The notes: generated by a model not told the origin, from the letters alone. Shown: positions 1,129-14,369, counted from the stretch's first letter. The stretch: DNA of 18,003 nucleotides from a virus (IMGVR_UViG_3300021279_000020), one strand, 5' to 3'. A program made the numbers and translations.

Positions 1129-1133
1129 GCCCA

Positions 1134-1160
1134 TAAAAAAAGCCCCTCCGGAGAGGGGCT
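1134..1160 (-). terminator. Rho-independent terminator (8-bp stem AGCCCCTC/GAGGGGCT, 4-nt loop, then U7 on the minus strand)
   Basis: Plus strand shows AAAAAAA then AGCCCCTCCGGAGAGGGGCT; on the minus strand this is hairpin followed by TTTTTTT. It lies downstream of the TerB / small-peptide pair. Confidence 0.6.
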
Positions 1161-1403
1161 GACGCTGCGTATCTGTATCATCATGCGCATGGTGCCGGGT
1201 GCCTCCCGGTGAGTTCAGTATCAGCACCTGAACCCGCACAGAAAGGATAAGGGATGTAACCAAACACCTGTCGCTGATATGCCCCTCCGCACAGGGGGAT
1301 TCACCATGCAGGATTTTTTTAACAAATTCTCAGTCGGGCAGACAACTGTCAACCGTCTGAATTGTGAGACATTTAAAATTTTCGGGGCATGACTGATACC
1401 CGG

Positions 1404-2165: not shown

Positions 2166-2242
2166 TGGCGCGTTGTACTGGATTCGAACCAATGACCGAT
2201 TGCTTAGAAGGCAATTGCTCTGTCCGGCTGAGCTAACAACGC
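2166..2242 (-). tRNA. tRNA-Arg (anticodon UCU), 77 nt
   Basis: Reverse complement folds as a canonical cloverleaf: acceptor GCGTTGT/ACAACGC, D-arm GCTC..GAGC, anticodon stem ATTGC/GCAAT with loop CTTCTAA, T-loop GGTTCGAATCC, discriminator G and encoded CCA. Confidence 0.9.
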
Positions 2243-2255
2243 AGTGTACCGATAA

Positions 2256-2332
2256 TGGACCGCCATCGAGGACTCGACCCCCGCGCAACCAGCTTCGAAG
2301 GCTGGCGCTCTGTCCCGATGAGCTAATGGCGG
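2256..2332 (-). tRNA. tRNA-Arg-like (anticodon UCG), 77 nt, non-canonical features (C1:G72 acceptor pair, T-loop GUCGAGU)
   Basis: Reverse complement: acceptor CCGCCAT/ATGGCGG, D-arm GCTC..GAGC, anticodon stem CCAGC/GCTGG with loop CTTCGAA, T-stem CGGGG/CCTCG, encoded CCA. Confidence 0.7.
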
Positions 2333-2341
2333 TATGTGATA

Positions 2342-2417
2342 TGGTGGCCCTTGCTGGATTTGAACCAGCGACCTGGCGATTATGAGTCGCTCGCTCTCAC
2401 CACTGAGCTAAAGGGCC
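2342..2417 (-). tRNA. tRNA with CAU anticodon, most similar in my recollection to tRNA-Ile2 (ileX-like, lysidine-modified), 76 nt
   Basis: Reverse complement GGCCCTTTAGCTCAGTGGTGAGAGCGAGCGACTCATAATCGCCAGGTCGCTGGTTCAAATCCAGCAAGGGCCACCA gives a complete cloverleaf with anticodon loop CTCATAA. Confidence 0.88.
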
Positions 2418-6513: not shown

Positions 6514-6669
6514 TTACTTCTCAGATTCGTAGTCTACGAAGACAGCAACCTCCGTCTGGCCGGTTCGGATTCGTACCTCGCAGAGGTCTTTCCTCGTTAC
6601 CAGTGCCGTCACTATGACGGTTAAACAGATGACGATCAGGGCGATTAACATCGCCTTTTGCTGCTTCAT
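6514..6669 (-). CDS. hok: Hok/Gef-family type I toxin, 51 aa (MKQQKAMLIALIVICLTVIVTALVTRKDLCEVRIRTGQTEVAVFVDYESEK)
   Basis: Near-identity by recollection to E. coli HokD/RelF. Single TM helix followed by a conserved C-terminal region. Confidence 0.88.
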   Translation of the reverse strand: MKQQKAMLIALIVICLTVIVTALVTRKDLCEVRIRTGQTEVAVFVDYESEK

Positions 6670-6726
6670 AGTCTGCTTCTCCTTGACCTTTCGGTCCGTA
6701 AGAGGCAATCTATATGTGACGAGCAT
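6514..6726 (-). CDS. mok: Mok-like in-frame N-terminal extension reading frame over hok (MLVTYRLPLTDRKVKEKQT then Hok)
   Basis: Track ORF 6514..6726. The extension matches my recollection of the MokC N-terminus (MLNTCRVPLTDRKVKEKRA). Confidence 0.6.
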   Translation of the reverse strand: MLVTYRLPLTDRKVKEKQTMKQQKAMLIALIVICLTVIVTALVTRKDLCEVRIRTGQTEVAVFVDYESEK

Positions 6727-6780
6727 ATAGGGGCCTCACTTCGATTTATAGTCGGGTGGGGCTTTTATCTATCTGCCGTT
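6715..6780 (+). ncRNA. sok: Possible Sok-like antisense RNA opposite the mok start; coordinates approximate
   Basis: Inferred from hok/mok architecture. A plus-strand -35-like TTGACC sits at 6683-6688. I could not place the -10 or the terminator with confidence. Confidence 0.3.
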
Positions 6781-6914
6781 GGTGTTCATGCCCGAGGCAG
6801 ATAGCCTCAAGCACCCGCAGCAATTCTACAAAAACAAACTATTATTTTCTATGTCCTTTCACTTGTCTCATTTCTGACTATACTGATCGCTCACACAACA
6901 CAAAAGGTATAAAA

Positions 6915-7088
6915 ATGACCGTTCATGGTATATCGGAAAACAGTACTGTTCACTTACGTGAAAAAAATGGAGAATGGCTTGTAATGCAAATTATTAGAAA
7001 CGAAGATATTACATATCAACTCCGAAATACAGATACAGACGAAGAAGTAATCGCCACGCTTCAGGACATTATCTCCCCAAATAAATAA
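6915..7088 (+). CDS. Candidate small protein, 57 aa (MTVHGISENSTVHLREKNGEWLVMQIIRNEDITYQLRNTDTDEEVIATLQDIISPNK), on the opposite strand to its neighbours
   Basis: Internal ATG of track ORF 6756..7088. Upstream TATACT (-10-like) and AAGG SD; followed by the GCGGGG...CCCCGC hairpin at 7099-7119. Confidence 0.35.
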   Translation: MTVHGISENSTVHLREKNGEWLVMQIIRNEDITYQLRNTDTDEEVIATLQDIISPNK

Positions 7089-7130
7089 TCAAATCAGCGG
7101 GGCGCACAATACCCCGCACTATTCCACTTA

Positions 7131-7214
7131 TCATCCCCAGCGGCAAATCGAATACACCACCAGCGCCACCGCCATTGCAATTCCTACCGCCACGAATGCC
7201 TCAGGCCAGGTCAT
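7131..7214 (-). CDS. Candidate hydrophobic micro-protein, 27 aa (MTWPEAFVAVGIAMAVALVVYSICRWG), ATG overlapping the stop of the upstream 160-aa gene (ATGA)
   Basis: Hand translation. SD GGAGG lies about 10 nt upstream. Single predicted TM helix. Below the track size cutoff. Confidence 0.4.
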   Translation of the reverse strand: MTWPEAFVAVGIAMAVALVVYSICRWG

Positions 7215-7693
7215 CGTAAAATATCCTCCGCGCTTATCAGTCCGTTTCGCTTCAGGTAGTCCATCGCTTTATCCGGTAGTTTGCTTGATTTATTAACGCT
7301 TTTTAAGGAATGAGATAACCGCTTCACCCACATTGTTAATTCACTTACCTGATCGCCTGATGCTGGATTATTGTCGCTTTTTCCAGGCAATATGTGCTCT
7401 CGACTGGATTTCCAGAATATCCACGCCAAATCCACATTTGGATCCCGGTAATTCATCCCTTCGTTAGCACGAAGCAACAATGTTGCATGGTTTTTATCAT
7501 CCGCATAGAACCTGATAAGCGCTTCGAACTGTTCGCGACCGTCATCAGGAATTACCTGAAAGTTGCCAGCCTGACGCATAGCTATTTCCATGATCTCAAC
7601 CATATCCCCTGGTAGAATTTTACAATGCTGACCAATATGCCTCTGCTGCCTGGCATATTCGAGGATGTGCTCCAGCTTGATACGATTAATCAT
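7211..7693 (-). CDS. Hypothetical protein, 160 aa
   Basis: Track ORF. ATG 7693 overlaps the stop of the 122-aa gene (ATGA). Confidence 0.75.
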   Translation of the reverse strand: MINRIKLEHILEYARQQRHIGQHCKILPGDMVEIMEIAMRQAGNFQVIPDDGREQFEALIRFYADDKNHATLLLRANEGMNYRDPNVDLAWIFWKSSREHILPGKSDNNPASGDQVSELTMWVKRLSHSLKSVNKSSKLPDKAMDYLKRNGLISAEDILR

Positions 7694-8058
7694 GATTTAT
7701 CTCCATTAAGCATGGCATCCCGGCAGGCATTCCAGCCTTCATCAAATCCGACAATGCCATTATTTAAAGATGGACGAGCATCCGGCACCACCGGTACTGG
7801 TTGGGCTACATATAACGGCTGAACATACCAGCCCTTTGATAACCAACTATCAGCAACGTTTTTACTCCTGGTTATTGCTGGAATACCCAGGCCATTGTCT
7901 GAATGCAGCCATGCCACCGGAACCGCTTCCAGCGATGCCAGTGCAATTTTGAATAGCTCGCCCTCTACCCTGGCCATCTCTGAATTAGGGTAACATTTTG
8001 CAACCGCTATTTTTAATTTGGCTTCTTTGATTAATTGCTCTTTGGTTAATTCAGTCAT
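7690..8058 (-). CDS. Hypothetical protein, 122 aa
   Basis: Track ORF with ATG 8058, preceded by a hairpin (ACCGCC..GGCGGT) and a distal AAGGAG. Confidence 0.75.
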   Translation of the reverse strand: MTELTKEQLIKEAKLKIAVAKCYPNSEMARVEGELFKIALASLEAVPVAWLHSDNGLGIPAITRSKNVADSWLSKGWYVQPLYVAQPVPVVPDARPSLNNGIVGFDEGWNACRDAMLNGDKS

Positions 8059-8153
8059 TTTTCATTACCGCCCTTTCAGGCGGTCTCCTTATGTTCTGAG
8101 GGTGCAGGAATCCCTCCGGTTAAGGATTAAATTTTTAACAGTGCTGAATTTAA

Positions 8154-8510
8154 TTATTCAGTTCTGGATTTTGACGCCCTGCGTATCCGCGCTTTCGCGT
8201 TACGCTCAATCTGAATTAACTTTTCTATATTTTTTCGCCTTTCCTGTTCCTCCTGGCGCAATAGCTTTACATCATCTGCCAGTCTGGTTTCTCTTTTCGC
8301 CACAGAGAGCATCCAGTCAAACGGCTCCACAACTGAACCGCAGATTTTACAGCGGACCTGACGCTCTTTTTCGTCAACCCGGACAGAGGCGTGATGGCAG
8401 TATGGTCTTTCCGATGGCTCATAAAGAAAATTAACCTGATTACGTGGGTCATCCTCTTTTACCGGAAATAAAACAATATTACTTAACTCATCTTCTGGTT
8501 TTATTTCCAC
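8154..8510 (-). CDS. Hypothetical protein with putative zinc-ribbon motif (C-HH...C-x2-C), 118 aa, GTG start
   Basis: Track ORF 8154..8552. SD AGGAGA lies 6 nt upstream of GTG 8510. Overlaps the 3' end of the upstream gene by 23 nt. Confidence 0.65.
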   Translation of the reverse strand: MEIKPEDELSNIVLFPVKEDDPRNQVNFLYEPSERPYCHHASVRVDEKERQVRCKICGSVVEPFDWMLSVAKRETRLADDVKLLRQEEQERRKNIEKLIQIERNAKARIRRASKSRTE

Positions 8511-8814
8511 ATCGCTCTCCTTTGATGCGAATGCCAGCAACACGTAGTGCATGTTCTAAGTCAGCCAGATAAAGCCAGCTGCCATTTTCCTTAGGTATCA
8601 TAATATGGCGCTCATCAGCATTTATCGGGTGTCCATAGCGAAGTTCATAACCAACCGGTAACTGGACTTCCCTTGCCTCCAGTTCTGCAATGCGCTTGTC
8701 TTTGGCCTCCAGTTCATCAAGGACCTTTTTTATGGCTGGCGAATGTGTCATATAACTCGCAGCCGGACCAGCAAGCATTATCCTGAGCTGTACTTTCGCT
8801 TTTTCTATTTTCAT
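8488..8814 (-). CDS. Hypothetical protein, 108 aa
   Basis: Track ORF. Its ATG immediately follows the TAG stop of the upstream gene. Confidence 0.7.
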   Translation of the reverse strand: MKIEKAKVQLRIMLAGPAASYMTHSPAIKKVLDELEAKDKRIAELEAREVQLPVGYELRYGHPINADERHIMIPKENGSWLYLADLEHALRVAGIRIKGERCGNKTRR

Positions 8815-9126
8815 CTACGCCATTACCTTGTTTCGCAACCAGACACAAACCGGGCCATCTTCAGTATCATGAATGGAGCCAATAAACCAGCCTTCTCCCT
8901 CTGGTCGTTCCGGTTCCCAGGCGGAAATACCGGAGTCATCTGCATCTGAATTAAAATCATCTTCATCCATACTGCAAATAGTCCACTGAAGATTATTTAC
9001 CTTCATCCAGGCGTCAAATTCCTCGGTGGAAATATATTCACGACCTGCGCAAAACTTTTCATACTCCGGATGTGTCCAGCAGCCATATTCATCACGTTCT
9101 ACCTGCATTTCTTTAATTTCGCTCAC
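8815..9126 (-). CDS. Hypothetical acidic protein, 103 aa (GTG start with AGGAGG SD; alternative ATG at 9153)
   Basis: Track ORF 8815..9153. A strong AGGAGG lies 6 nt upstream of the in-frame GTG at 9126. Confidence 0.7.
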   Translation of the reverse strand: MSEIKEMQVERDEYGCWTHPEYEKFCAGREYISTEEFDAWMKVNNLQWTICSMDEDDFNSDADDSGISAWEPERPEGEGWFIGSIHDTEDGPVCVWLRNKVMA

Positions 9127-9418
9127 TTGTTGCCTCCTGGAAAATAACCGCATGTCCCAGTTTCTCCGCCAGTGCCAGTTCTGCCTTAGCGCCTGCCGAC
9201 CGCTGCCAGCCTTTCAGCATGTAAATCGCATCCACGCAGCGTATCATCGCCATGCAGATATCCATGTACTGCGGCTGTGTCAGCCCGTCCGGAAGTACTG
9301 CCGGGTTTAAAACGGTATGCCCTTCCCGTTTCAGTGCTTCTTCCGCCCTGTGAAATGCCTCGCAGTTGAAATTTTCATATCCCGTCATTGGACCGGCGAT
9401 ATAAATGCTCACCCTCAC
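9113..9418 (-). CDS. DUF4406-like / nucleoside 2-deoxyribosyltransferase-fold protein, 101 aa, GTG start overlapping the upstream stop (GTGA)
   Basis: Track ORF. The N-terminal VSIYIAGPMTG motif resembles deoxyribosyltransferase-like folds. SD AGGAGGG lies 7 nt upstream. Confidence 0.65.
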   Translation of the reverse strand: MRVSIYIAGPMTGYENFNCEAFHRAEEALKREGHTVLNPAVLPDGLTQPQYMDICMAMIRCVDAIYMLKGWQRSAGAKAELALAEKLGHAVIFQEATSERN

Positions 9419-13690: not shown

Positions 13691-14180
13691 TTAGCACCAG
13701 TAAAAACAGGTTGCCACTGGTTAATTTACCCTGAAAAGTCAGGGCATAACACGAAAGCGCACGGCGAAGTTCGTATATCTGTACGGCGTCGTTAAATTTT
13801 CTTCGACCGTGCACTTCCGGTTGTGGCAATCCGCGAAATGGCGCGGCGGTAAGTATGGCTGGGGTTTCCTCCATTGCTCCAGAAAATGCACCGGGTTGTC
13901 AGGTTGACCATACGCTTAAGTGACAGCCCCGCCACAATACCCATGTGTAGTCTTTGGTGGCATCAGTTCTACTCCGTGACTGCTCTGCCACCCTTTTTAA
14001 AGTGAATTTTGTGATGCGGTGAATGCGGCTATGCGCACGCGGAACAGTTAAAACCGTAAAGTGGTCTTTTACGGGGCGTAACGGGCATACTTCTGTATTC
14101 CGGCGTTAATTGTTAACTGGTTAACGTCACCTGGAGGCACCAGGCACCACATCACAAAATTCATTGTTGAGGACGCGATA

Positions 14181-14369
14181 ATGGAAACGTTATTACCAAA
14201 CGTTAATACGTCTGAAGGGTGTTTTGATATTGGTGTTCTGCTCAGTAACCGGGAGTTTACTGAAGATGCCATTAAGATGAGAAAATATGAGCCTTATCTT
14301 CTCAATGATAATTCCATACTCTCCAGAATTGCCCTTCTTAAACTTGGTATTTTCGGGGGGCAGCAGTGA
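14181..14369 (+). CDS. Hypothetical small protein, 62 aa
   Basis: Track ORF with SD GAGGA 8 nt upstream of ATG 14181. Confidence 0.55.
   Translation: METLLPNVNTSEGCFDIGVLLSNREFTEDAIKMRKYEPYLLNDNSILSRIALLKLGIFGGQQ

Follow-up and report, generated by a model that had tools for sequence, protein, structure and literature searches.

Seven small minus-strand genes at positions 7,131 to 9,418 of an 18,003-nucleotide viral sequence (IMGVR_UViG_3300021279_000020; the whole stretch is hereafter called the window) probably make up the hypervariable accessory part of the pR operon in a lambdoid prophage of the Qin/Rac type, and are best read as a string of independent small genes rather than a multi-component system. 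In minus-strand order, the block comprises the gene of a DUF4406 protein, open reading frame (ORF) 5, ORF4, ORF3, a 95-nucleotide (nt) non-coding linker, ORF2, ORF1 and a micro-ORF (Table 1). The window derives from an E. coli prophage of the Qin/Rac type and is 99% identical in this region to an annotated prophage in E. coli ST130; within the early-right (pR) operon, the block takes up the nin-like position. Each gene, and each domain of ORF1 and ORF4, has its own distribution among related prophages. The block is a further case of a known type of region, with uncharacterised genes.

Gene content varies independently across the block

Prevalence of the individual genes was determined by megablast against 5,426 complete E. 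coli genomes, a gene being counted where the match covered at least 80% of its length. ORF3 was found in 1,679 genomes (~31%) and ORF5 in 626 (~12%), followed by ORF4 in 39, ORF1 in 13 at full length (with partial copies in 549) and this allele of ORF2, at full length, in 11. Prevalence varies up to 150-fold across the block, and the whole 2.7-kb stretch was recovered from a single genome.

Viral contigs gave the same picture. Of 80 IMG/VR contigs fetched via DUF4406, 57 also carried the micro-ORF, and in these 57 loci the stretch from DUF4406 to the micro-ORF measured 0.2-3.1 kb and held 53 protein families in ~40 gene orders; at two of them (L087 and L091) the slot was nearly empty, at ~0.2 kb. 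The same shuffling was apparent in an independent set of 118 contigs selected by means of the 95-nt linker. DUF4406 was present in 27 of these 118 loci, and is thus optional cargo too; its interpretation as the conserved left anchor of the slot was rejected as an artefact of ascertainment through DUF4406 itself. The exact arrangement of the window was seen again only in viral contig L031, and the same arrangement with a divergent ORF2 allele (58% identity) was present in one complete genome, that of E. coli ST130.

Alternative cargo of the slot included true Ead_Ea22 proteins (scoring 94 and 116 bits) and DUF551 proteins, as well as an HNH endonuclease and various small proteins, some of them acidic (families F4, F6 and F12 are acidic and tiny) and others membrane proteins. 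The ORF2 family was the commonest, with 34 members in the 57 loci. Mosaicism extended to the level of the domain, as ORF1 and ORF2 match the two halves of one phage protein family, phrog_660. A first-pass annotation of the window had described the block as an operon of genes of unknown function and a candidate for an undescribed module. That the genes are uncharacterised is borne out, and the region holds strongly variable cargo and not nin-region housekeeping genes of stable content. The module is contradicted by the genome counts and by the number of families and gene orders, which show that the genes do not vary as a unit.

Cassettes meet at short conserved joints

Cassettes are joined at short conserved sequences, each of which covers the final codons of one gene together with the ribosome-binding region of its successor. 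At the first, the 3' end of the DUF4406 gene is read in another frame and yields a recurrent spurious N-terminus, M(R/Q)LFSRRQ, on the following protein. At the second, proteins encoded ahead of ORF3 differ in body and end in a common tail, AGIRIKGE(EHGNKTRR), that overlaps the Shine-Dalgarno sequence and start codon of ORF3; it is because this joint lies inside the upstream gene that different ORF3-upstream proteins bear the same tail (8488-8535; loci L028-L225). These upstream proteins include stubs of 47-50 amino acids (aa) and one type with a GxxGxGKS-like motif (SGFTGCGKSAIAGE). The third joint, formed by the C-terminal module of ORF1 and the micro-ORF, is the fixed right end of the slot, and the fourth is the linker, which occurs between many different gene pairs. 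This pattern is classical lambdoid mosaicism. Exchange of DNA among lambdoid phages by relaxed homologous recombination has reportedly been shown experimentally (PMC3945230, PMC2327257).

An obligate pair of an Ea22-like gene and ORF3, as suggested by our first clustering, was rejected, since the upstream proteins differ and only their last 8-16 residues are common. A few database proteins (P0003, P0006 and P0043) have an Ead_Ea22 part fused in-frame to the zinc-ribbon part of ORF3; small indels within the 23-nt overlap of the two reading frames are the probable origin of these fusions.

The linker is conserved between different neighbors

The linker occurs in one copy per locus, in at least 120 viral contigs among the matches listed, and its copies are 90-100% identical between at least five different upstream gene ends and at least six different downstream gene starts. 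It consists, in order, of an AU-rich stretch, a hairpin (GGAGGG...CCCUC), an AGGAG Shine-Dalgarno sequence and a GNRA-type hairpin (ACCGCCU-GAAA-GGGCGGU), after which the next start codon follows. The Shine-Dalgarno sequence lies 24-27 nt before that start codon, a distance that the intervening GNRA-type hairpin would shorten. Folding of the linker RNA was predicted at -30.3 kcal/mol (z=-3.8 against shuffled sequences). Variants within the hairpins are mostly G-C to G-U changes, together with one double change and a few mismatches; these are too few for covariation to be assessed, and the search pattern used to collect the copies itself fixed the first hairpin on its 5' arm.

Against Rfam families, the prophage small RNAs AgvB, AsxR, STnc100, sok and DicF included, the linker had no match at E<=1 in a scan of the whole window and only chance-level matches at E<=10 in a local scan, and a consensus scan found neither a sigma-70 promoter-like site nor a U-tract terminator within it. 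Pas small RNAs end in a poly-U terminator (bioRxiv 10.64898/2026.05.13.724894), and the linker, having no poly-U end, was rejected as a member of that group. A nut-like boxA/boxB reading, at ~8 of 11 bases, was unconvincing.

It is possible, though rather unlikely, that the linker is a functional RNA element and not merely a recombination scar, and that with the micro-protein it forms a fixed scaffold for interchangeable early genes; separately, and with the same reserve, ORF3 or ORF5 could be new host-targeting or counter-defence proteins. The linker may be a structured translation-initiation or processing site, its GNRA hairpin bringing the Shine-Dalgarno sequence near the next start codon. 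Other possibilities are a cis-acting signal for transcription or antitermination, or else a plain recombination joint.

Organization of the locus

The lengths of the ORFs and every junction listed in the first-pass annotation were confirmed from the list of ORFs and the minus-strand sequence. GTGA at 9418-9415 combines the stop codon of the preceding helix-turn-helix (HTH) gene with the GTG start of the DUF4406 gene, whose end is overlapped over 14 nt by ORF5 from its own GTG start (9126). The ORF5 stop codon TAG (8817-8815) abuts the ATG of ORF4 (8814), and ORF4 in turn overlaps ORF3 by 23 nt (8488-8510), ORF3 starting with GTG at 8510 with AAGGAG ahead of it. ATGA at 7693-7690 joins the ORF2 stop to the ORF1 start, and a second ATGA at 7214-7211 joins the ORF1 stop to the ATG of the micro-ORF. 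What had been described as one linked run of seven ORFs is divided by the 95-nt gap at 8059-8153 into two coupled runs, DUF4406-ORF5-ORF4-ORF3 and ORF2-ORF1-micro-ORF, with the overlaps and abutments as described. The micro-protein, which had been counted within 7211-9418, is encoded just outside that interval.

RefSeq gene calls in E. coli ST130 agree on lengths of 160, 122, 118, 108, 103 and 101 aa, save that the ORF4 counterpart is an incomplete pseudogene. All six ORFs fall into phage protein families of the PHROGs collection (E 1e-18 to 1e-74), which marks them as genes rather than chance ORFs. Packing is equally dense elsewhere in the operon, where the DUF968 and RusA genes are 12 nt apart and the RusA and DUF1133 genes overlap by 4 nt; such packing is the norm for the operon, and therefore tight coupling says little by itself. 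A consensus scan found no sigma-70 promoter-like site ahead of either run.

Table 1. Positions of the genes of the accessory block and of other features in the window
Feature	Position	Strand	Length	Remarks
DUF4406 protein	9113-9418	-	101 aa	First gene of the run
ORF5	8815-9126	-	103 aa	
ORF4	8488-8814	-	108 aa	
ORF3	8154-8510	-	118 aa	
Non-coding linker	8059-8153	-	95 nt	Between ORF3 and ORF2
ORF2	7690-8058	-	122 aa	
ORF1	7211-7693	-	160 aa	
Micro-ORF	7131-7214	-	27 aa	Last gene of the run
Terminator-like hairpin	7097-7117	-		GCGGGGTATTGTGCGCCCCGC, then TGATTTGATT; 14 nt past micro-ORF stop; consensus scan
Plus-strand ORF	6756-7088	+	110 aa	Between terminator-like hairpin and hok
Promoter-like site	7019-6990	-		Same strand as hok/sok
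hok/sok type I toxin-antitoxin locus	6514-6816	-		Directly 3' of block; Hok/Gef Pfam E=1e-22, Rfam sok 104.6 bits
Three tRNA genes	2169-2417	-		
STnc100 small RNA	1129-1338	-		147 bits
DicF small RNA	13942-13993	+		61 bits
Second STnc100-like match	13991-14213	+		32 bits, sub-threshold; adjoins DicF

On the minus strand, the block is preceded by a Cro-like gene, YdaT, O-like and P replication genes, DUF1627 and an 84-aa HTH protein, and is followed by hok/sok, a Rem-like 90-aa protein, DUF968, RusA, the Q-like DUF1133, a methyltransferase and three tRNAs. An operon-like run between O/P and the Q-like DUF1133 is in keeping with the nin-like position assigned in the first-pass annotation. DicF and dicB are on the other arm of the prophage. 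The 110-aa plus-strand ORF beside hok gave no family matches, and RefSeq ST130 has only a 57-aa hypothetical protein there.

Properties of the encoded proteins

Only the DUF4406 protein could be placed in a family with confidence, and from its sequence it is assigned a nucleoside 2-deoxyribosyltransferase-like fold, which upholds the DUF4406-like fold noted at first pass. It matches Pfam PF14359 with E=5.4e-36 and 123.3 bits against a gathering cut-off of 22, residues 4-93 aligning with positions 2-91 of the 91-position profile; it also has a weak match to Nuc_deoxyrib_tr in Pfam and corresponds to phrog_355 ('nucleoside 2-deoxyribosyltransferase', E=1e-45). Among 18 DUF4406 sequences from several phyla, Y6, G9, N38-P39, W71, S74, G76 and E80 are at least 90% conserved, as is the motif S74-x-G76-A77-x-x-E80. 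E80 may be the equivalent of the catalytic Glu of deoxyribosyltransferases and DNPH1. The other five ORFs fall in PHROGs of unknown function and have no NCBIfam match, and a sequence search of solved structures returned no relative for any of the six proteins.

ORF5 encodes an acidic protein (isoelectric point (pI) 4.1) from a GTG start with an AGGAGG Shine-Dalgarno sequence, and its family numbers 1,096 cluster representatives at 50% identity. Two motifs are conserved, RDxxGxWTHP and WxPxxPxGxGWFIGSIHDTEDGPxCxWLR. The predicted model (predicted local distance difference test score (pLDDT) 82.7, predicted template modelling score (pTM) 0.74) is that of an acidic alpha/beta domain without a solved structural relative, and the predicted fold is unlike any known DNA mimic or inhibitor in PDB. 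Domain fusions were rejected as a route to its function, as only one of ten long relatives scanned had a known extra domain (DHHA1), which is insufficient. In that protein (P0393, 455 aa), the DHHA1 phosphoesterase domain lies upstream of the ORF5-like domain, and this single case may be a fusion of gene calls. Of the 665 places in E. coli that hold ORF5 homologues, 95 are on plasmids, and a homologue is also present in D6, a P1-like phage; the cassette therefore moves beyond lambdoid prophages.

ORF4 is laid out as an N-terminal segment, a heptad-like coiled-coil stretch (ELEAKDKRIAELEARE), a small C-terminal domain and the shared tail AGIRIKGERCGNKTRR. It belongs to phrog_250 (E=3e-18), and its residues 39-108 are found again in longer proteins of 153-195 aa. 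It is a composite and appears, by sequence, to be a short Ea22-like protein.

ORF3 has a conserved N-terminal motif, ELSNxVxFP, then a zinc ribbon of the form CxH...CxxC, and after it a basic helix of 55 residues. It belongs to phrog_1621 (E=3e-55) and scores 22 bits against Zn_Ribbon_TF (PF08271) in Pfam, under the cut-off of 29. Residues C38, H40, C54 and C57 are invariant in 38 ORF3 sequences, and the basic C-terminal helix is very conserved. The AlphaFold2 model (pLDDT 76.5) has a hairpin at residues 43-54 and a helix at 63-117; as modelled, two metal-ligand pairs flank a beta-hairpin, which is the arrangement of a TFIIB-type zinc ribbon and substantiates the Zn-ribbon-like motif seen at first pass. 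Against PDB by sequence (E<=10), ORF3 matched only S27e (0.46) and a dirigent protein (1.6), and a Foldseek search of the model against PDB returned only generic TFIIB-type ribbons (best E=0.22). The ORF4-ORF3 pair was rejected as an equivalent of lambda ea22-ea8.5, because the sequence of ORF3 does not match the Ea8.5 homologues of solved structure and nothing in its model resembles a homeodomain; that the upstream partner of ORF3 is not fixed counts further against such a mirror.

The N-terminal part of ORF2 is a helical 'IALASLEA' segment, after which comes a PVAW...PLY...P domain, and the protein matches phrog_5117 (E=2e-28) and the N-terminal half of phrog_660. Homologues are named 'Ea22' in some phage records and 'valyl-tRNA synthetase' in several RefSeq genomes; the latter name, for which Pfam and NCBIfam gave no matches, appears to be an annotation error that has propagated. 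In ORF1, a composite protein, residues 1-50 match the N-termini of DUF551 proteins and residues ~116-160 form a module that is always found ahead of the micro-ORF. It matches phrog_924, phrog_24004 (over residues 1-50) and the C-terminal half of phrog_660, and across loci its matches are partial, the list of homologues including DUF551 relatives.

The micro-ORF encodes a single hydrophobic helix (MTWPEAFVAVGIAMAVALVVYSICRWG; consensus MxWPEAFxxxGIAMAVALVVYSICRWG). Its frame is kept in 29 DNA variants, among them one divergent allele rich in synonymous changes, and indels are in-frame; its coding status is supported by the synonymous-rich divergence and the in-frame indels. The DNA is conserved in 1,324 of the 5,426 complete E. 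coli genomes (about a quarter), with conservation beginning at the stop codon. The micro-ORF has no PHROG, is annotated sporadically as a 27-aa hypothetical protein and is absent from the RefSeq ST130 annotation. Fusion of the micro-ORF to DUF551 proteins, as cluster membership had suggested, was rejected, the 121-aa members being without the peptide. The terminator-like hairpin downstream may mark the end of the accessory run, but terminator-like sites in the region are only as numerous as expected from shuffled sequence.

Interpretation of the block

We propose that these are delayed-early genes, which would be reached by transcripts reading through from pR when the prophage is induced or the phage infects, and would be translated in the two coupled runs. 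Cassettes would be exchanged by relaxed homologous recombination at the conserved joints, and the products would act singly on host or phage physiology. From fold and relatives, the DUF4406 protein may be an N-glycosidase or transferase acting on nucleotides or nucleosides. ORF4 and ORF2 may form Ea22-like coiled-coil oligomers whose variable C-terminal domains bias the lysis-lysogeny outcome, as do lambda and Shiga toxin (Stx) phage Ea22. ORF3, through its zinc ribbon and long helix, may bind a protein or nucleic acid, while ORF5 may be an acidic binding domain and the micro-ORF product a membrane peptide.

Several observations weigh against this interpretation of independent genes or against parts of it. 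ORF5-ORF4-ORF3 are kept together in three loci (L001, L031 and L037), and an ORF4-type C-terminal domain precedes ORF3 in roughly 60% of cases, and some functional pairing is therefore possible. The samples consist mostly of closely related E. coli prophages. ORF4 lies below the Pfam cut-off for Ead_Ea22 (PF13935 / IPR025153), with 15 bits vs 27 and E=0.037 over coiled-coil residues 26-51 only, and ORF2 has no Pfam match, Ead_Ea22 included; because both miss this threshold, the functional analogy with Ea22 is loose. We infer the timing of expression and the functions of all the proteins, the individual roles being drawn from fold and relatives.

It is conceivable, if doubtful, that one or several of the genes encode counter-defence proteins and that the slot is an anti-defence island in which each protein is directed at a different host system and turnover reflects an arms race. 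Small, highly variable and individually exchangeable genes of an early operon are the typical signature of accessory and counter-defence regions in phages. The strong acidity of ORF5 and of the tiny proteins among the other cargo fits it, as does the presence of ORF5 on plasmids and in phage D6, and the nucleotide-processing fold of DUF4406 might allow it to eliminate or modify a nucleotide on which host immunity relies. However, neither NCBIfam nor Pfam revealed homology to a named inhibitor, PDB contains no known DNA mimic or inhibitor with a fold like that of ORF5, and the only experimentally studied relatives, the Ea22 proteins, act on the lysis-lysogeny choice and not on immunity (PMC7093339). 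PADLOC-DB 2.0 profiles gave no match at E<=0.1 for the six ORFs, and ten other cargo families returned only generic HNH and coiled-coil similarity, so that the defence function raised in the first-pass annotation gained no positive support.

That the block is decaying filler of a cryptic prophage, made of recombination debris and gene fragments without present function, is highly improbable. ORF1 and ORF4 are indeed composites of pieces from other proteins, the RefSeq ST130 counterpart of ORF4 is an incomplete pseudogene and many database relatives are fragments. Against this, the reading frames are all intact and tightly coupled, ORF3 and ORF5 show strong motif conservation across 45-97% identity ranges along with confident fold predictions, micro-ORF divergence is biased toward synonymous changes, and the same genes occur in the sequenced phage genomes ArgO145, vB_EcoS-689R5 and D6. 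Scarcely credible at all is a single undescribed multi-gene defence (or other) system of seven ORFs, as tight translational coupling and the recurrence of the arrangement in L031 and, with the divergent ORF2 allele, in one complete genome are outweighed by the up to 150-fold differences in prevalence, the dozens of other combinations, the nearly empty slots, equal coupling throughout the operon, the lack of a PADLOC match and the lack of an ATPase, nuclease, sensor or effector domain in any of the seven.

As a hypervariable accessory segment, the block shows lambdoid prophages of E. coli, Stx phages included, shuffling small early genes at the level of both gene and domain, and from one early operon to the other. 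In practice the result is negative, in that the block is not worth pursuing as a seven-gene system. Worthwhile single targets are ORF3 and ORF5, which are abundant, conserved and without a known fold relative, together with the DUF4406 enzyme, the linker and the micro-peptide. Ea22 proteins, which are relatives of these gene products, influence the lysis-lysogeny balance of Stx phages, and any function found would therefore bear on the induction of toxin phages.

Comparison with known systems

The block resembles morons, which are insertions of promoter, gene and terminator, in being optional cargo between conserved genes and in that the run ORF2-ORF1-micro-ORF is followed by a terminator-like hairpin. 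It differs from them in that neither run is preceded by a sigma-70 promoter-like site and the genes are translationally coupled, not autonomous.

The surroundings of the block correspond to those of Qin/Rac-type cryptic prophages (hokD-rem-ydfU-rusA-quuQ), with hok/sok, the Rem-like 90-aa protein, DUF968 (YdfU), RusA and DUF1133 in place, and with DicF and dicB on the other arm. K-12 prophages presumably have other genes, relBE and flxA, at the equivalent place. Cargo of the kind described here is typical of prophages of Shiga toxin-producing and other wild-type E. coli.

Similarity to the nin region of lambda and P22 (P/ren to Q) lies in the position, in the dispensable, tightly overlapping small ORFs and in the RusA-type resolvase nearby, and a NinG-related HNH gene is among the alternative cargo of the slot. 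The seven ORFs matched no Nin family (NinB/Orf, NinD-H, NinX-Z) in Pfam or NCBIfam, and the content of the block, unlike that of the nin region, is of the ea22 type.

The closest parallel in content is the exo-xis ('ea') region of lambda and Stx phages (ea22, ea8.5, orf60a/61/63/73; pL operon), which likewise holds a mosaic set of non-essential small early genes. Ea22 proteins are mosaic, in that they have the N-terminus and coiled coil in common but differ in their C-terminal domains, which are portable and include DUF551, and they are pro-lysogenic (PMC10834534, PMC7093339, PMC8614690). The block appears to share with that region Ea22-type proteins in which a coiled coil is joined to swappable C-terminal domains, and a small zinc-binding protein right after the Ea22-like gene. 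The differences are that ORF4 and ORF2 lie under the Pfam Ead_Ea22 threshold, that ORF3 is not an Ea8.5 homologue and that the cassettes lie in the pR operon downstream of O/P and not between exo and xis. Family scans of the interval, none of them aimed at counterparts of orf60a/61/63/73, returned DUF4406 only. In the Stx2a phage ArgO145, an ORF3 homologue (gp17) lies in the int-to-exo (early-left) region and has the same 23-nt overlap, there with an ead/Ea22-like gene; this region also carries the linker, the micro-ORF and the C-terminal module of ORF1. Part of the cargo pool of the block is therefore common to the exo-xis-type region, and is found here in the pR operon.

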